Positions 30,240 through 64,000 of a stretch of 64,000 nt of DNA are shown here, piece by piece. The stretch is from Mustelus asterias (lineage: Eukaryota). How positions within the stretch are numbered: position 1 is the first letter of the stretch; each line of letters starts with the position of its first letter. The translations under genes were made by a program, and so were the position numbers. Where the stretch lies: assembly GCF_964213995.1 (NCBI RefSeq), contig NW_027590151.1, forward strand, positions 806,001-870,000. Reading direction: 5' to 3'. The notes below the pieces were generated by a model. It worked only from the letters and a program-made list of their open reading frames with translations. It made no database searches and was not told where the DNA came from.

Positions 30240-32130
30240 ACATTATCTCAGGATTGCTACCAGTGCCATGTACTATTCAGAGTCGAAACAGCAGGATATA
30301 TTGGGTGAATACCTGGCTGAAAAGATGATGTGAGAGGCAGGGTTTCAGATTCCTGGGACATTGCGACTGGTTCTGGGGAAGGTGGGACCAGTACAAACTG
30401 GACAGGGCCAGGACTGATGTCCCTGGGGGGGTTGGGAGTGTACTTGTTGAGTCATTGGGAAGGTTTAAACTAAAATGGCAGGGAGATGGAAACCTATGTA
30501 AGGATTCAGAGCAGAGGGTATCAAGAACAAGAGAAAAAGACAGCAAGAAGAATAAGAAAAGTGATAGGCAGAGAATCGAGAGCCAGAATCAGATACGGAC
30601 ACAGTAAAAAATGGTAGGAACTGGACAACAAATGTTAAAAGGACTAGCCTGAAGGTTTTGTCCATGAACGCTTGGAGCATTCAAAATAAAATGGATGAAT
30701 TTGTTGCACAGTTAGATGTAAAGGGGTATGATACAGTTGGGACTACAGAGACATAGCTCCAAGGTGACCAAGGATGGGAACTAAACATTGAGGGCTATTC
30801 AGTGTTTAGGAAGGACAGACATAAACAAAAACATGGTGGAGTTGCATTGTTAATTAAGGATGATATGTGGAATATGTATGGGTCAAGTTAAGCCACACCA
30901 AGGGGCAAAAAACATTTGTGGGTGTGGTATACAGACTACCAAATTAATGGTAATGTTAGGAAAAGCATTAGACAGGAAATCAGAGATGCATGTGTTAAAT
31001 AAATATCTGTGATTATAGGTGACTTTAATCTGCATACAGATTGGGTGATCAAATTAATCACATTACAATAGAGGAGGAATTTTTGGAGTGGTCTTCTGGC
31101 CCAATACTTTTGAGGAGCTAAGGGAGCATGCCATCTTGAACTGGGTATTGTGCAATGAGAAAGGATTGACAATCTAGTTGTGAGAGAACCCTTGGGGATG
31201 AGCGACCATAATATGATAGAATTCTTTGTCAAAGTGGATAATGATGTAGTTGATTCTGACACCAGAGTCCTGAATTTCAGTAAAGGTAACTATAATGGAT
31301 TGAGGCATGAATTGGCTATGATGGACTGGGAAACATGACTGAAAGGAAGGACAGTGGACAGACAATGTTAAAGTTTATTAGTCACAAGTAAGGCTGACAT
31401 TAACACTGCAATGAAGTTACTGTGAAATTCCCCTCGTCGCCACAGTCCGGCGCCTGTTCGGGTCAATGCATCTAACAACACGTCTTTCAGAATTTGGGAG
31501 GAAACCGGAGCACCCGGAGGAAACCCACGCGGACACGGGGAGAACATGCAAACTCCACAGAGACAGTGACCCAAGCCAGGAATCGAACCCGGCAGCATTG
31601 CGAACCACTATGCCACCCACGGTAGGCATTTAAGGAACAAGTAGGTGAACTTAAAGTTGTTTACTCCTATTTGGCACAAGAGTGGAAAAGGAACTGTAGC
31701 CAAACCATTGCTTCCAAGGGAAATTAGAGAGAGCATTAGATTCCAAGAAGAAGCATAAAAATTGGCAAGAAAAAGCAAAAGACCTGAGGATTGGGAGCAG
31801 TTTACAATACAGCAAAGGAGGACCAAGGAATTGATTCAGAAGGAGAAATTAGAATATGAAAGTAAGCTAGTGGGGAACATAAAAACTGAGTGTAAAAGGT
31901 TCTATAGGTATGTAAAGAGAAAAAGGTTGACAAAACGAATGTAGGCCCTTTACAGTCAGAAACAGGAGAATTCATAACGGGGAATAAAGAAGTGGCTGAG
32001 GAACTAAATTCGTACTTTGCTTCTGAATTCACAAAAGAATATCCCATGATTCAAAAAGGGAGGAAGCGAGAAAATGGGGAACTATAGACTACTGAGCCTA
32101 ATGTAGGTAGTAGGGAAGTTGCTAGGGTCA
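30240..32130 (+). mobile_element. Decayed CR1 LINE retaining the ORF1 end, ORF1/ORF2 junction and endonuclease
   Basis: ORF1-like NTWLKR..ERQGFRFLGH, GGTTTAAACTAA at 30462-30473, then decayed NAWSIQNK, GGVALL and IGDFN motifs. Confidence 0.8.
31369..31618 (-). mobile_element. V-SINE second family nested in CR1
   Basis: Same body and tail as 19885-20134. Confidence 0.8.
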
Positions 32131-34496: not shown

Positions 34497-35108
34497 GTGC
34501 TGGAGGCTACAGTTGAGGAGGAATCAACTGAGCATAGAGAGCAGATCTCTGGGGGTGAGCCGAGTGAGAAAGCTCAGGTGGTTAGGGGCTGTAAAAGACT
34601 GGGCCTTGTGATTGGGGACTCCACAATTAAGGGGACAGATGGGAGGGTCGGAACTAAAGGTAGGGACTCAGGGTTGGTGTGTTGCCTACCAGGGGCTGGG
34701 GTCCGGGATGTGTCTGACAGGGTATTCAGGACTCTTAGGGGGGAGGGAGATAAACCACAAGTTATTGTACATGTGGGGACACACGACATAGGGAGGATAG
34801 GGGAAGGGGTTATTAGGCAGGGATTTATGGAGTTGGGGTGGAAACTAAAGGCCAAGACTGACAGAGTGGTTATCTCTGGACTCTTGCCTGTACCACGGGA
34901 TAGTTTAGAGAGGAATAGGGAGAGGGAAGGTTTGAATTCATGGCTGAGGGGATGGTGCAGGAGGGAGGGGTTCAGGTACTTAAGCAATTGGGGCTCGTAC
35001 TGGGGAAGGTGTGACCTCTATGAGAAGGATGGTCTACACCTTAATCAGAAGGGGACCAATATCCTGGGGGGTAAATTTGCTAAGGCCATGCAGGGAGGTT
35101 TAAACTGA
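34497..35108 (+). CDS. CR1 ORF1, partial (SGNH esterase-like domain)
   Basis: VIGDS, CLPGAGV, VHVGTHD, DGLHLN motifs. Confidence 0.85.
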   Translation: MLEATVEEESTEHREQISGGEPSEKAQVVRGCKRLGLVIGDSTIKGTDGRVGTKGRDSGLVCCLPGAGVRDVSDRVFRTLRGEGDKPQVIVHVGTHDIGRIGEGVIRQGFMELGWKLKAKTDRVVISGLLPVPRDSLERNREREGLNSWLRGWCRREGFRYLSNWGSYWGRCDLYEKDGLHLNQKGTNILGGKFAKAMQGGLN

Positions 35109-35158
35109 TTCGGGGGGGGGGAGGGATCCTGAGTAGTGGGGCTGAAAGTGAGGGATGC

Positions 35159-57770: not shown

Positions 57771-58510
57771 ACTAATCGCACTGCTTGTGTTTGACACATT
57801 TACAAACTACTCGGTGGCCATGGCAACACACACTCCATTTGTTGGTTCAGGGAGTTGAGTGGAATTTCCATTTTAAAGTGTCATCATTCATTGTACATCA
57901 GACCACATCTACAAACCTCTTTCTCACACTTCCAATGAAGAGGGACAAATGTGGATGGATGGATGGATCACTTTGAGAAATTCTTTACTGTCTAATGTGA
58001 TTTTCCCTCTCAACAGACCATTTATAAACCTTATTTCTGGGATCTTACGTCAATCACTTATTCAATTGTCCATTAGTCAGGGACATATTCTAGATAATCC
58101 GTCCTATTCCGATTGGATGTCCATGAAGTCATTTAGTGGCTCATCACTTGCTTGGACATCCTGTTCAATCTTTACTCAGACGGTTGGTTTACACGTGGGT
58201 CATGAGAACCCCACAACCCTATCAAATTCATCTTGTTTCAGGTTCTGTGCCAGTGACATGTCCTTGGCAGATATAACAGGCCGACACTGTCCTGTGTTTG
58301 TCAACCCAGGAAGCTTTCTTCATAAGTGAGAGAGATATTCCTATAATATTCAATACATTTCTAAATATTTTATCTCACAGTGATGCCTTACAGATCTCCG
58401 CACCCTGAGAAGGGAATAAAAGCAAAATACTGCAGAGGCTGGAATCTGAAACAAAAACAGAAAATGCTGGAAAATCTCAGTAAGTCTGACAGCATCACGA
58501 CCTTCGGACC

Positions 58511-58866
58511 TGCGTCTTGGAAGTGCAGCAGAGAGGGAGAGATTCGCGAGAGGAGTGCTGCGGGTAAGCGCTGTTATTTTTAACTTACTTTTTCGCGGGT
58601 TTTTTCTTTAAAAATATCTAAACCCGGAAGTGGTCGCGCAGGGAGGTCTGGGAGAGAGAGATTTTTTTTTTTTTAAAAAGTTACTCACCTCAGTGAATCG
58701 GCCTCATTGCGTCTTGGAAGTGCAGCAGAGAGGGAGAGATTCGCGAGAGGAGTGCTGCGGGTAAGCGCTGTTATTTTTAACTTACTTTTTCGCGGGTTTT
58801 TTCTTTAAAAATATCTAAACCCGGAAGTGGTCGCGCAGGGAGGTCTGGGAGAGAGAGATTTTTTTT
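58511..58866 (+). repeat. Two identical ~158-bp 5' UTR monomers (offset 197 bp)
   Basis: 58511-58669 matches 58708-58866; each has CCGGAAGT and CGG|GTAAG. Confidence 0.9.
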
Positions 58867-59053
58867 TCCCCAATAAATTGGAACAGAGAGGAATCCCGAT
58901 ACTCTACACTTGTAGAGTATCCCACCCTCCCTCCTCCTCTAACCTAAAAAAAAAGACCCAGTGAGAGCAGGGCTTTGGAGAAAACAGGAGGAGGAAAGGT
59001 AAGTTTAAAATTTTCATTCACTTTTTTTTCCCTGTGTGTTTAAAGGGGCAATT

Positions 59054-59971
59054 ATGAGTGTGAGGCCAGTATGTTGTTCCCAATGTAGGATGTGGGAGGT
59101 CCTGGAGGCTCCTAGCCTCCCGGACGACCATATCTGTGCTGGGTGTGTTGAGCTGCGGTTCCTAAGGGAACATGTTAGGGAACTGGAATTGCAGCTCGAG
59201 GACCTTCGCCGGGTTAGGGATAGTGAGGAGGTCATTGACAGGAGCTATCGGCAGGTGGTCACACCGGGACCATGGGAGGAGGGTAACTGGGTAACAGTGA
59301 GGAAGGAGAAAGCTCAGTTGATGGTGAGCACCCCGGTGGATGTGCCCCTTAATAATAAATACTCCTGTCTGAGTACTAATGGGGTGGACAGCCCACCTGG
59401 GGGAAGCAGCGTTGGCAGTGTCTCTGGAGCTGAGCCTGGCCCAGTAGTGCAAAAGGGTAAGGAAAGGAGGGTAGTGCTAACTGGGGACTCTACGGTGAGG
59501 GGGTCAGATAGGCGTTTTTGCGGACACAGACGGGACTCTCGGATGGTGGTTTGCCTCCCTGGTGCAGGGGTCCGGGATGTCTCTGGTCGAGTCCCAGAAA
59601 TCCTGAAGGGGGAGGGAGAGGAGCCGAAGGTCGTGATGCATATAGGTACTGCTGACATAGGTAGGAAGAGGGAAGGGGTCATGAAAAGAGAATATAGGGA
59701 GTTAGGTAGACAGCTGAGAAAGAGGAATGCAAAGGTAGTAATCTCGGGATTGCTGCCTGTGCCGCGGGAGAGTGAGAACAGGAATCGGTGGAGAATGAAT
59801 GCGTGGCTGAGGGACTGGAGCAAGGGACAAGGATTTGGGTACTTGGATCATTGGGACCTCTTTAGGGGCAGGTGTGACCTGTTTAAAAAAGACGGGTGGC
59901 ACTTGAATCCCAGGGGGACCAATATCCTGGCGGGAAGGTTGGCTAAGGCTACTGGAGAGACTTTAAACTAG
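59054..59971 (+). CDS. CR1 ORF1, 305 aa: Cys zinc-binding motif, coiled coil, SGNH esterase-like domain
   Basis: CSQC..CAGC, LREHVRELELQLEDLRR, LTGDS, HIGTAD, DGWHLN. Confidence 0.92.
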   Translation: MSVRPVCCSQCRMWEVLEAPSLPDDHICAGCVELRFLREHVRELELQLEDLRRVRDSEEVIDRSYRQVVTPGPWEEGNWVTVRKEKAQLMVSTPVDVPLNNKYSCLSTNGVDSPPGGSSVGSVSGAEPGPVVQKGKERRVVLTGDSTVRGSDRRFCGHRRDSRMVVCLPGAGVRDVSGRVPEILKGEGEEPKVVMHIGTADIGRKREGVMKREYRELGRQLRKRNAKVVISGLLPVPRESENRNRWRMNAWLRDWSKGQGFGYLDHWDLFRGRCDLFKKDGWHLNPRGTNILAGRLAKATGETLN

Positions 59972-59976
59972 AAAGG

Positions 59977-62889
59977 TTGGGGGGAGGGAATCGAAATGAG
60001 GGGACTGAGAGCGAGGAGGTTAGCTCGCAAATAGATAAGGAATGTAAACAGGGTAAGAGGGAGGTTAGACGAGTGATGGAGAAGGGAAGTGCTCAGGCTG
60101 AAGGTCTGAGATGTGTCTATTTTAATGCCAGGAGTGTAGTGAATAAAGTGGATGAGCTTAGAGCGTGGATTGCTGCTTCGAATTGTGATGTGGTGGCCAT
60201 TACGGAGACTTGGATGTCTCAGGGACAGGACTGGGTGCTTCAGGTGCCGGGTTTTAGATGTTTCAGGAAGGACAGGGAGGGAGGCAAGAGAGGGGGGGGA
60301 GTGGCACTGTTGATCAGGGATAGTGTCACGGCTGTAGAGGAGGTGGACGCCGTGGAGGGATTGACTACGGAGTCTCTGTGGGTGGAGGTGAGGAACAGGA
60401 AGGGGTCGGTAACGTTGCTGGGTGTTTTCTATAGGCCGCCCAATAGTAACAGAGATGTTGAGGAGCAGATGGGGAAACAGATCCTGGAGAGATGTAGGAA
60501 TAACAGAGTTGTCGTGATGGGAGATTTTAATTTCCCAAACATAGATTGGAATATCCCTAGGGCTAGGGGTTTGGATGGAGAGGAGTTTGTTAGGTGTGTC
60601 CAGGAGAGTTTCCTGACACAGTATGTGGATAAGCCTACTAGAGGAGAGGCTGTACTTGATCTGGTGCTGGCTAATGAACCTGGACAGGTGGAGGATCTCT
60701 CGGTGGGTGAGCATCTTGGGGATAGCGATCATAATTCTATCTCCTTCACGATAGCATTGGAAAGAGATAGGATCAGGCAGGCTAGGAAAGTGTTTCTCTG
60801 GAGTAAAGGGAAATACAGTGTCATCAGGGAGGAAATTAGACGGGTAAATTGGAAGGAGGCATTCTTGGGGAAAAGTACCGAAGGAAAGTGGAGGATTTTC
60901 AAGGAATGTTTGTCTGGAGCTCTGCATGACAACGTTCCGATGAGACAGGGGGGTGTTGGTAGGGTACGGGAACCGTGGTGCACGAAGGTTGTGATGAACC
61001 TGGTGAATAAGAAAAGAGAGGCGTACAGAAGGTTCAGAGAGCTAGGAGGTGTTAAGGATTTAGAGGAGTATACGGGATGTAGGAAGGAGCTTAAGAAGGA
61101 AATTAGGAGAGCGAGAAGGGGTCATGAGAAGGCCTTGGCGGGTAAGATTAAGGAGAATCCCAAGGCTTTCTACAAATATGTCAAGAGTAAAAGGATGAGA
61201 TGTGAAGGCATAGGACCCTTAAAAGGTGAAGGGGGAAAAGTTTGTGCGGAACCGTTAGAAATGGCGGAGCTGCTTAATGAATACTTTACCTCGGTATTCA
61301 CGGTGGAAAGGGATCTGGGTGGTTGTACTGCTGGTTTGCGGTGGACAGAAAGGATCGAGCATGTGGACATAAAGAAAGAGGATGTGTTGGAACTATTGAA
61401 TGGCATCAAGGTTGGTAAGTCGCCGGGACCGGATGGGATGTACCCCAGGTTACTGTGGGAGGCGAGGGAGGAGATTGCGGAGCCTTTGGCGATGATCTTT
61501 GCATCGTCGATGGAGACGGGAGAGGTTCCGGAGGATTGGAGGATTGCAGATGTGGTCCCTATATTCAAGAAAGGGAACAGGGACAGCCCGGGAAATTACC
61601 GACCGGTGAGTCTAACCTCAGTGGTTGGTAAGTTGATGGAGAGGATCCTGAGAGACAGGATTTATGATCATCTAGAGAAGTTTAGTATGATCAAAAGTAG
61701 TCAGCACGGCTTTGTCAAGGGCAGGTCGTGCCTTACGAGCCTGGTTGAGTTCTTTGAAAATGTGACCAAACACATTGACGAAGGAAGAGCGGTGGATGTG
61801 GTCTATATGGACTTCAGCAAGGCGTTCGATAAGGTCCCCCATGCAAGACTTCTTGAGAAAGTGAGAGGGCATGGGATCCAAGGGGCTGTTGCCTTGTGGA
61901 TCCAGAACTGGCTTGCCTGCAGAAGGCAGAGAGTGGCTGTGGAGGGGTCTTTCTCTGCATGGAGGTCAGTGACCAGTGGAGTGCCCCAGGGATCTGTTCT
62001 GGGACCCTTGCTGTTTGTCATTTTCATAAATGACCTGGATGAGGAAGTGGAGGGATGGGTTGGTAAGTTTGCTGACGACACCAAGGTAGGTGGTGTTGTG
62101 GATAGTTTGGAGGGATGTCAGAAGTTGCAGCGAGACATAGATAGAATGCAAGACTGGGCGGAGAAGTGGCAGATGGACTTCAACCCGGATAAGTGTGTGG
62201 TGATCCATTTTGGCAGATCCAATGGGATGAAGCAGCAGTATAATATGAAGGGTACCATTCTTAGCAGTGTAGAGGATCAGAAGGACCTTGGGGTCCGGGT
62301 CCATAGGACTCTTAAATCGGCCTCGCAAGTGGAGGATGCGGTCAAGAAGGCGTACGGCGTACTGGCCTTCATTAATCGAGGGATTGAGTTTAGGAGTCGG
62401 GAGATAATGCTGCAGCTTTATAGGACCCTGGTTAGACCCCACTTGGAGTACTGCGCGCAGTTCTGGTCACCTCATTACAGGAAAGATGTTGAAGCCATTG
62501 AAAGGGTGCAGAGGAGATTTACAAGGATGTTGCCTGGATTGGGGGGCATGCCTTATGAGGATAGGTTGAGGGAGCTTGGTCTCTTCTCCCTGGAGAGACG
62601 AAGGATGAGAGGTGACCTGATAGAGGTTTACAAGATGTTGAGAGGTCTGGATAGGGTAGACTCTCAGAGGCTATTTCCAAGGGCTGAAATGGTTGCTACG
62701 AGAGGACACAGGTTTAAGGTGCTGGGGGGTAGGTACAGAGGAGATGTCAGGGGTAAGTTTTTCACTCAGAGGGTGGTGGGTGAGTGGATTCGGCTGACGT
62801 CGGTGGTGGTGGAGGCAAACTCGTTGGGGTCTTTTAAGAGACTTCTGGATGAGTACATGGGATTTAATGGGATTGAGGGCTATAGATAG
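59977..62889 (+). CDS. CR1 ORF2: APE endonuclease + reverse transcriptase, intact (first ATG 60076)
   Basis: YFNARS, ITETW, MGDFN, SDH, QHGF, GVPQGSVLGP, FADD. Confidence 0.95.
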   Translation: MGGGNRNEGTESEEVSSQIDKECKQGKREVRRVMEKGSAQAEGLRCVYFNARSVVNKVDELRAWIAASNCDVVAITETWMSQGQDWVLQVPGFRCFRKDREGGKRGGGVALLIRDSVTAVEEVDAVEGLTTESLWVEVRNRKGSVTLLGVFYRPPNSNRDVEEQMGKQILERCRNNRVVVMGDFNFPNIDWNIPRARGLDGEEFVRCVQESFLTQYVDKPTRGEAVLDLVLANEPGQVEDLSVGEHLGDSDHNSISFTIALERDRIRQARKVFLWSKGKYSVIREEIRRVNWKEAFLGKSTEGKWRIFKECLSGALHDNVPMRQGGVGRVREPWCTKVVMNLVNKKREAYRRFRELGGVKDLEEYTGCRKELKKEIRRARRGHEKALAGKIKENPKAFYKYVKSKRMRCEGIGPLKGEGGKVCAEPLEMAELLNEYFTSVFTVERDLGGCTAGLRWTERIEHVDIKKEDVLELLNGIKVGKSPGPDGMYPRLLWEAREEIAEPLAMIFASSMETGEVPEDWRIADVVPIFKKGNRDSPGNYRPVSLTSVVGKLMERILRDRIYDHLEKFSMIKSSQHGFVKGRSCLTSLVEFFENVTKHIDEGRAVDVVYMDFSKAFDKVPHARLLEKVRGHGIQGAVALWIQNWLACRRQRVAVEGSFSAWRSVTSGVPQGSVLGPLLFVIFINDLDEEVEGWVGKFADDTKVGGVVDSLEGCQKLQRDIDRMQDWAEKWQMDFNPDKCVVIHFGRSNGMKQQYNMKGTILSSVEDQKDLGVRVHRTLKSASQVEDAVKKAYGVLAFINRGIEFRSREIMLQLYRTLVRPHLEYCAQFWSPHYRKDVEAIERVQRRFTRMLPGLGGMPYEDRLRELGLFSLERRRMRGDLIEVYKMLRGLDRVDSQRLFPRAEMVATRGHRFKVLGGRYRGDVRGKFFTQRVVGEWIRLTSVVVEANSLGSFKRLLDEYMGFNGIEGYR

Positions 62890-63324
62890 GCCTAGAGGTG
62901 GGGATGTGATCGGCGCAACTTGTGGGCCGAAGGGCCTGTTTGTGCTGTGGCTTTCTATGTTCTATGTTCTATGGAGAGAGAATAGAGCCAACGTTTCGGG
63001 TCTGGATAACCCCCTGCCTTGAAATGTTGGCTCTATTCTCTCTCGGTGGTAGTCATGATGTGGAGATGGCGGCGTTGGACTGGGGTAAACACAGTAAGAG
63101 TTTTAACAACACCAGGTTAAAGTCCAACAGGTTTATTTGGTAGCAAATGCCATTAGCTTTCAGAGCGCTGCTCCTTCGTCAGATGGAGTGGATATCTGCT
63201 CATAAACAAGGCGTACAGAGACACAAACTCAAGTTACAGAATACTGATTAGAATGCGAATCTTTACAGCTAATCAACTCTTAAAGATACAGACAATGTGA
63301 GTGGTGAGAGCATTAGGTCACGGT

Positions 63325-63657
63325 ACCTCCTCTTGCAACTCGGCCAACATTGTCTACCTGATATGCTGCAGGAAAGGATGTCCTGAGGCATGGTACATTG
63401 GGGAAACCATGCAGACGCTACGACAACGGATGAATGAACACCGCTCGACAATCACCAGGCAAGACTGTTCTCTTCTTGTGGAGGAGCACTTCAGCGGTCA
63501 CAGGCATTCGGCCTCTGATCTTCAGGTAAGCGTTCTCCAAGGCGGCCTTCACGACACACGACAGCGCAGAGTCGCTGAGCAGAAACTGATAGCCAAGTTC
63601 CGCACACATGAGGACGGCCTAAACCGGGATCTTGGGTTCATGTCACACTATCAGTAA
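63325..63657 (+). CDS. Penelope GIY-YIG endonuclease domain (C-terminal fragment)
   Basis: NIVYLICCRKGCPEAWYIGET..LRQRMNEH...HF...EQKLI...GLN. Confidence 0.85.
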   Translation, partial: TSSCNSANIVYLICCRKGCPEAWYIGETMQTLRQRMNEHRSTITRQDCSLLVEEHFSGHRHSASDLQVSVLQGGLHDTRQRRVAEQKLIAKFRTHEDGLNRDLGFMSHYQ

Positions 63658-63864
63658 CCCCCACAACTTGCCTGGCTTGCAAAATCTCACTGGCTGTCCT
63701 GTCTTGAGACTATACACATTTCTTTAACCTGTGCCTAATGCTCTCTCCACTCACATTGTCTGTATCTTTAAGACCTGATTAGCTGTAAAGATTCGCATTC
63801 TAATCAGTATTCTGTAACTTGATTTTGTGTCTCTGTATGCCCTGTTTGTGAGCAGATTTCCACT

Positions 63865-63901
63865 CCATCTGACGAAGGAGCAGTGCTCCGAAAGCTAATG
63901 G
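63865..63901 (+). ncRNA. Minimal hammerhead ribozyme (second copy on the minus strand, 63150-63186)
   Basis: CCAT CTGACGA A GGAGC-AGT-GCTCC GAAA GC TA ATGG: perfect stems I and II; predicted cleavage after 63897. Confidence 0.75.
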
Positions 63902-64000
63902 CATTTGCTACCAAATAAACCTGTTGGACTTTAACCTGGTGTTGTTAAAACTCTTACTCTATTCTCTCTCCACAGATGCTGTCAGACTTACTGGGATTTT

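Follow-up and report, generated by a model that had tools for sequence, protein, structure and literature searches.

How does a long interspersed nuclear element (LINE) with two open reading frames (ORFs) make the reverse transcriptase that is encoded by the second one? The question is raised by the window analysed here, the whole 64,000-nucleotide (nt) stretch of contig NW_027590151.1 of Mustelus asterias, whose plus strand carries at 58511..62973 a full-length copy of a young CR1-type LINE, with both ORFs open and with its 5' end and tail. All positions are those of the window; copies of this young CR1 are referred to as the window family, and genome counts apply to the 3.68 Gb genome. Judged from the sequence, CR1 very probably makes its endonuclease-reverse transcriptase by programmed -1 frameshifting, as a fusion of ORF1 and ORF2.

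Organization of the ORF1/ORF2 junction

ORF1 (59054..59971, plus strand) starts at ATG 59054, encodes 305 amino acids (aa) and ends in Leu-Asn-stop. This end is written as the slippery heptamer T TTA AAC (59962..59968, plus strand), which has the X XXY YYZ form in the phase of ORF1 and is directly followed by the ORF1 stop codon (59969..59971, plus strand), TAG here and TAA or TGA in other lineages. Upstream, a TAA at 59944..59946 (plus strand) closes the -1 frame and holds the overlap of the ORFs to 22 nt. From 59947 to 62889 the -1 frame is open in the window copy, including the linker from the shift site to the endonuclease (59968..60105, plus strand), so that the predicted fusion would have 305+973 = 1278 aa with the junction ...ATGETLN-LERLGGG. 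An in-frame ATG (60076..60078, plus strand, GTG ATG G) lies 10 codons 5' of the endonuclease and is specific for the window family. The sequence was read again for the claims of the first-pass annotation: the coordinates of the TAA, the TTTAAAC, the TAG and the 305-aa ORF1 were all exact, and the open -1 frame to 62889, the 1278-aa fusion with this junction and the position of ATG 60076 in the ORF2 frame were confirmed.

The same arrangement occurs twice more in the window. A second CR1 lineage, with an ORF2 that is 62% identical, has the heptamer followed by TGA (35099..35108, plus strand, heptamer 35099-35105) and ORF2 in the -1 frame; a third, decayed lineage has the heptamer followed by TAA (30464..30473, plus strand, heptamer 30464-30470) and the endonuclease in the -1 frame. 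Because these two lineages share the heptamer, the stop and the -1 phase, and because of the genome-wide count of the two-part motif given below, the junction pattern is far beyond chance. Neither is it an accident of one copy, since the 501 nt at 59800-60300 were 100% identical in 40/40 scored genomic matches (of 695 candidates); the window family is very young. Contigs spanned the junction without gaps in three of four sequencing runs, a result that has no bearing on translation and in which the RNA status of most runs is a guess.

Nucleotide constraint on the heptamer

Junctions were gathered blind to the heptamer; their sources were 60 arbitrary 10-kb stretches, a Pfam esterase search and a pattern for the catalytic motif DGLHLN (13,090 genome matches). 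Of 142 anchors found with DGxHL, 123 have an endonuclease start downstream, and in 92 of these the ORF1 stop lies at the 26 codons expected. Indels or early stops led to the exclusion of the other 31 from the counts, although most of them show the heptamer by eye. After removal of one duplicate place, 91 copies remained in 16 clusters (hereafter lineages), eight of which contain at least three copies. The window family clusters with a sister lineage, to which it is 85% identical in the first 85 residues of the endonuclease, and served as a ninth family in the AUG counts.

TTTAAAC was present in 84 of the 91 copies. The codon 5' of the Leu encodes seven different amino acids across the 16 lineages and has T as its third base in all of them, the Leu is TTA in 14/14 lineages and the Asn is AAC in 14/15. 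By comparison, three other Leu columns of the same 26-codon block use 3-5 codons each and the Asn of DGLHLN takes both codons; codon-invariant columns make up only 2 of the 36 amino-acid-invariant columns in the flanking ORF1 and endonuclease blocks of nine representatives. Codon use in the ORF2 of the window copy includes TTA for 4 of 80 Leu and AAC for 10 of 33 Asn. Genome-wide, the pattern DGLHLN-N53-NYTNAAY-TRR, with counts that are weighted by large families, found 9,686 copies with a Leu/Phe-Asn-TRR end of ORF1, of which 9,316 have the exact TTTAAAC. Synonymous variation is suppressed at the shift site and the constraint acts on the nucleotides and not on the protein. The first-pass annotation had reasoned that free use of synonymous Leu-Asn codons or of other ORF2 phases by related CR1s would speak against frameshifting. 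The synonymous codons are not used, and neither are other phases by the multi-copy lineages.

Linker frame and start codon

The modal linker lengths of the eight multi-copy lineages differ (104, 116, 119, 125, 128, 134, 137 and 164 nt), and all of them keep the -1 phase. Stops in the linkers of the 66 in-phase copies, which were not selected for openness, number 145 when read in the 0 frame and 314 in the +1 frame, against 8 in the -1 frame, where 61 of the 66 copies are open. The 8 stops of the -1 frame occur in 2,881 codons, against 141 in dinucleotide shuffles. Comparison of the linkers of the window family and its sister counted 6 codons as synonymous and 13 as non-synonymous in the -1 frame, compared with 1/18 and 4/13 in the others, a difference that is weak and is not counted as support.

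A start codon shared by the lineages was not observed. Three of nine families have, as a rule, an in-frame AUG ahead of the endonuclease, at +53, +68 and +107, and six have none; a near-cognate start common to the lineages was not found. ATG 60076, considered by the first-pass annotation as a possible ORF2 start, is not conserved: the sister lineage has ATA at this place in 12/15 copies and never ATG. Two copies with complete ORF2 frames, L202 and L151, are open from the heptamer for 977 and 968 codons, and no Met occurs in them until 21 and 84 codons into the endonuclease, respectively. As a separate observation, ORF1 and ORF2 of L151 (G000:C12:51333500-51340500, minus strand) form one frame of 1290 codons owing to a small indel towards the end of ORF1, a natural arrangement seen in this single copy.

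The G-rich element

The sequence GGGGG(G/A)(T/A)GGG begins 10 nt past the heptamer in 8/8 multi-copy lineages and is found in the window copy at 59979..59988 (plus strand), where it is a candidate stimulator. The combined motif TTTAAAC-stop-N7-GGGGGRWGGG has 17,367 matches in the genome and its reversed control has 4; with a spacer one codon longer (N10) there are 82 matches and with one codon shorter (N4) there are 10. Three Gs of the element are at synonymous positions of the -1 frame, and GGG accounts for 25 of the 91 Gly codons in the window ORF2. The signal, newly described here, has two parts at a fixed spacing, the heptamer with its stop and the G-rich element. Its most unusual part is this G-rich element, which stands at a fixed distance without a partner strand. 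The G tracts that had been reported to start after a spacer of 6 nt do so in the window copy, but the GG at +6 and a fourth tract are not universal across the lineages.

Two partners for the G-rich element were considered and rejected. Pairing with the 3' end was dismissed for this group, the best duplex positions being scattered over 26 copies. Pairing with a C-rich module in the 5' untranslated region (UTR) reaches -27.6 kcal/mol in the window family and down to -36.4 in lineage 7. Lineages 11 and 14 likewise contain the module. Lineages 6, 10 and 12 have the G motif, yet no module in the 5' regions shown for them, and the variable central base did not co-vary as a pair; as a general stimulator the module was therefore rejected. 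A scan of 58400-60300 against Rfam gave nothing near the gathering score. The module itself (58885-58950; also considered in L256, L257, L192, L134, L189 and L246) consists of a hairpin with compensatory changes followed by the C-rich tract and has no Rfam match. It is common to four otherwise distant CR1 lineages and absent from three, which suggests swapping of 5' UTRs. In the second lineage of the window (35109-35121; L184, L195, L256, L257) the run after the stop counts 10 G and varies by 1-2 bases between near-identical copies. This variation throws 4 of 10 copies of that lineage off phase and is either real slippage or an assembly error.

Junctions beyond this genome

Ten esterase-related loci were obtained from metagenome data. 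All five with a Leu-Asn end of ORF1 (CR1-type) carry TTTAAAC-TAG, and the endonuclease of the four that extend so far is in the -1 frame. The motif is missing from the remaining five, two of which run on in the same frame past TGA. The G-rich element is at the same spacing in contigs L263 and L264 and partly so in L261; we take L263 and L264 to be bird-type from their ORF1 sequence. Of the metagenome contigs, L265 and L266 hold L2-like esterase LINEs with an endonuclease-like frame that follows in frame after TGA, which suggests readthrough or reinitiation rather than frameshifting. Relatives were not found in the collections of genome contigs and viral contigs.

The motif TTTAAACTA was also looked for in a published consensus table, in the first 400 characters of each consensus; the matches were thus chosen on the motif, and species were read from the row codes. 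By eye, 17 of 23 matches are at the end of ORF1, and the same spacing is seen in the alligator, elephant-shark, sawfish and catshark consensuses (PMC13343379 supplement). Among the 24 of 35 matches listed for six synonymous variants of the heptamer in that table, none was at a CR1 ORF1 end by eye and one L2 row was ambiguous.

Evidence against frameshifting and alternative explanations

A number of observations weigh against a programmed frameshift or its stimulation. A second third-position column, nine codons 5' of the stop, likewise holds T in 16/16 lineages, so that the heptamer is not alone in its invariance. Together with the two bases that follow, this T forms a -1-frame stop (TAA or TAG) in the commonest codons of 13/16 lineages, as at 59944-59946 in the window, and because this stop is kept, any shift would be limited to the last seven ORF1 codons. 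The 16 lineages are related by descent and hence not independent. Of the 91 copies 25 are off phase, including six of the eight single-copy lineages; they are mostly 1-2 bases off the mode of their lineage and look decayed. Downstream of the heptamer no local stem-loop or pseudoknot was significant or shared, with minimum free energy z-scores from -1.7 to +1.8 and nothing from alifold; a structure 5-9 nt downstream, as in coronaviruses and retroviruses, is thus not found. Neither was a shared long-range pairing partner for the G-rich element conserved. A two-tier G-quadruplex is predicted in only five of ten distinct junctions, while the local G4Hunter score is in the top 1% of element windows for six of ten. 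As a stimulator the predicted G-quadruplex is only partly supported, because the GG at +6 and the fourth G tract are not universal. Finally, ATG 60076 is in good context, with G at -3 and +4, the ATA of the sister lineage is a near-cognate start, and missing AUGs alone are no proof of frameshifting, since ORF2 of L1 still works when its AUG is changed to another sense codon (passages of PMC1965478).

The last points would suit termination-reinitiation, in which ribosomes stop at the UAG and restart at ATG 60076 or, like those on L1, at a non-AUG codon to make ORF2p as a protein of its own, and in which the heptamer and the G-rich element serve termination or retention of the 40S subunit. An AUG is present in the linker of three of nine families and of two of the three non-shark representatives. 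The UGGGA in the G-rich element of many lineages resembles the reinitiation motif of caliciviruses; the window family, however, has AGGGA. Reinitiation or coupling is moreover the mechanism reported for L1 and SART1 in the parts seen of PMC2881922 and PMC5972666. Yet it predicts neither an X XXY YYZ sequence with an invariant X nor a -1 frame that stays open from the heptamer as far as the AUG, it gives no reason for linker indels to come in multiples of three, and the AUGs are at different positions where they are present at all. We regard reinitiation as unlikely.

Alternatively, the motif could be a signal for transcription or RNA processing (a splice site, a variant poly(A) signal or a promoter for ORF2 inside the element), with ORF2 translated from a separate RNA. 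TTTAAA resembles a TATA-like sequence and GGGTGGG a GC-box, and one contig-level joint with GT..AG ends (59585-59914) was seen in one run. This joint lies upstream of the heptamer and would leave the frame after the stop unchanged unless ORF1 itself were shifted, and the loose ends at its two borders suggest contigs from other lineages. The motif is not an AG acceptor, because the stop varies between TAG, TAA and TGA. A processing signal explains neither the lock of the motif to the codon phase and stop of ORF1 nor the open -1 linker, and an RNA with ORF2 only would be without an AUG before the endonuclease in most lineages, so that this explanation is very improbable. Least probable, by a small step, is that the heptamer is a by-product of protein constraint, either because a C-terminal Leu-Asn is needed or because ORF2 starts upstream with dual coding. 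It is true that 22 of 30 ORF1 homologs end in Leu-Asn (one in IN, one in LNLNG and six elsewhere) and that Phe-Lys-Leu recurs in the -1 frame. However, the synonymous codons are unused, and this codon invariance largely refutes the explanation. Dual coding has an overlap of just 22 nt with no conserved start inside it, and it leaves the last base of the heptamer free (CTA or TTA), yet this base is C in 14/15 Asn-ending lineages. None of the three explanations accounts for both the invariance of the X base and the open -1 linker, and all are rated low.

Proposed mechanism

A programmed -1 frameshift is the simplest account of the heptamer, its phase, the adjacent stop, the fixed G-rich element, the open -1 linker and the lack of a conserved AUG. 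Most ribosomes would terminate at the UAG and release the 305-aa esterase protein (ORF1p). A smaller number, holding UUA in the P site and AAC in the A site, would re-pair on UUU and AAA by tandem slippage and read on through ...TLN-LERLGGG into the 1278-aa protein. A weaker part of the model is that pausing would come from the adjacent stop and from GGGGGRWGGG, which would then be just outside the mRNA entry channel; the role of both as stimulators is less certain than the shift itself. Because a conserved Watson-Crick stem was not found, the G-rich element would most likely be a protein-binding or a non-canonical (G-quadruplex-like) element.

A broader proposal is made more tentatively, and we consider it somewhat less probable than its opposite. 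For several hundred million years, the esterase-type CR1s of vertebrates may have made their polymerase as a Gag-Pol-like fusion of ORF1 and ORF2 by means of the heptamer, an immediate stop and a structure-free G motif at a fixed 10-nt spacer, which would act through a bound protein (of the host, or ORF1p) or through a G-quadruplex. This would be an undescribed type of signal and, if true, a class of natural frameshift stimulator that has not yet been documented.

Structure and surroundings of the element

The 5' end of the window copy at about 58511 is common to 10 of 30 copies of its family. The 5' UTR (58511..59053, plus strand) contains two identical 160-nt repeats (58511-58670 and 58708-58867) with a spacing of 197. 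It also has GTAAG donor-like motifs, and a pyrimidine tract with AG directly precedes the ORF1 ATG (58999-59044, 58562-58570); both suggest splicing in the 5' UTR. ORF1 consists of a Cys-rich N-terminal region and an SGNH/GDSL esterase domain at residues 144-288 (~59483-59917; PF13472, E 2e-12, above the cut-off). ORF2, which terminates at TAG 62887-62889, contains an APE-type endonuclease domain at 60106..60732 (plus strand; PF03372, exo/endo-phosphatase, E 9e-23) and a reverse transcriptase (RT) domain at 61567..62235 (plus strand; PF00078, RVT_1, E 9e-34). The esterase, endonuclease and RT content ascribed to the fusion is thereby borne out by profile matches. The short 3' UTR (62890..62973, plus strand) ends in (TTCTATG)3 at 62953-62973. 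Vertebrate CR1 elements have a short 3' UTR that ends in a tandem microsatellite, without poly(A). The window copy has the esterase ORF1, the ORF2 with APE and RT domains and the short 3' UTR with a microsatellite end, and is likely a vertebrate CR1 LINE, to judge from this architecture and from its visible likeness to the junctions of published CR1 consensuses.

Named homologs of ORF1 include ray and skate proteins with 50-71% identity. In the window family esterase block III (ORF1 residues ~196-200) reads GTAD and the catalytic block DGWH, where relatives mostly have GTND and DGLH. One homolog of the CR1 ORF1 (P0018) is deposited as Pseudomonas aeruginosa on a 4-kb contig and is probably vertebrate contamination. 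The flanks (58440-58500 and 62974-64000) indicate that the CR1 was inserted within the terminal repeat of a GIY-YIG (Penelope-like) element, an assignment that comes from a weak PF01541 match at 63301-63654. The target-site duplication is not clear; a 24-nt inverted repeat is present at 62974-63044.

Discussion

In most vertebrates the CR1 group is the dominant kind of retrotransposon, and it makes up 22-34% of elasmobranch genomes, as stated in the parts seen of PMC13343379. Frameshifting, if true, would be a directly testable answer to how CR1 makes its RT. The active enzyme would be synthesized in linkage with the esterase-bearing ORF1p, like Pol with Gag, and annotations would have to be corrected where they place the ORF2 start at an arbitrary Met further downstream or take the offset of the ORFs for damage. 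Frameshifting would also offer a naturally occurring case in which to test a G-rich frameshift stimulator; natural use of a G-quadruplex for frameshifting was not known according to the parts seen of a 2016 review (PMC5009743). That review does not mention CR1 in its first 300,000 characters, and in the examined main text and supplement of the 2026 CR1 survey frameshifting has 0 occurrences (PMC13343379). Passages of PMC3905857, PMC5006619, PMC2734521, PMC11835228 and PMC4700185 propose no mechanism for the translation of CR1 ORF2. A proposal of frameshifting in CR1 was not found in the open literature, with Kapitonov and Jurka (2003) and the 1990s papers on chicken and turtle CR1 outside the scope; priority is uncertain, since the overlap may have been remarked on, or a frameshift put forward, in those papers.

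A -1 frameshift has been stated before for elements that lack long terminal repeats (LTRs; non-LTR elements). The first-pass annotation had assigned reinitiation or coupling to the studied ones, L1 and SART1, and -1 shifting typically to LTR elements, which agrees with the passages seen of reviews on L1 and SART1 (PMC2881922, PMC5972666, PMC3708506) but not with Dictyostelium TRE5-A and TRE3-A, stated in part of PMC5911963 to need a -1 frameshift for ORF2; frameshifting is also stated for the gag of Drosophila HeT-A in the parts seen of PMC5009743. Like CR1, TRE5-A and TRE3-A are APE-RT LINEs with two ORFs; they differ in clade, in ORF1 and in being targeted to tRNA genes, and the likeness is that of a stated shift (PMC5911963). 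With this precedent, the new part is the CR1 signal with its G-rich element at a fixed distance.

The heptamer of CR1 is identical, and in correct phase, to that of the coronavirus 1a/1b junction (U_UUA_AAC in infectious bronchitis virus, IBV), which is among the most shift-prone heptamers for mammalian ribosomes (parts seen of PMC5009743). Coronaviruses and retroviral gag-pol also share with CR1 a short -1 overlap and a polymerase downstream of an abundant upstream protein (PMC5009743). Unlike these systems, CR1 has an adjacent stop and a 10-nt G-rich sequence at a 10-nt spacer, no pseudoknot or stem was found 3' of its heptamer, and the host of the signal is a non-LTR element. Shifting to nsp2TF in porcine reproductive and respiratory syndrome virus (PRRSV) acts through a short motif about 10 nt away, without structure. 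Its dependence on nsp1beta and PCBP is a precedent for protein-stimulated shifting (parts seen of PMC5009743). It differs from CR1 in using a poly(C)-binding protein and in making -2 shifts, and a protein that binds the CR1 element is only hypothetical.

Published canonical CR1s of vertebrates resemble the window copy in the esterase ORF1, the APE-RT ORF2 and the same junction motif in the consensus table (parts seen of PMC13343379). L1 and SART1 have in common with CR1 a bicistronic LINE RNA and the need for low-level ORF2 expression, but they make a separate ORF2 protein, across a 63-nt spacer in L1 and from an overlapping stop-start in SART1, whereas CR1 has a slippery site and no conserved start (passages of PMC2881922, PMC5972666).

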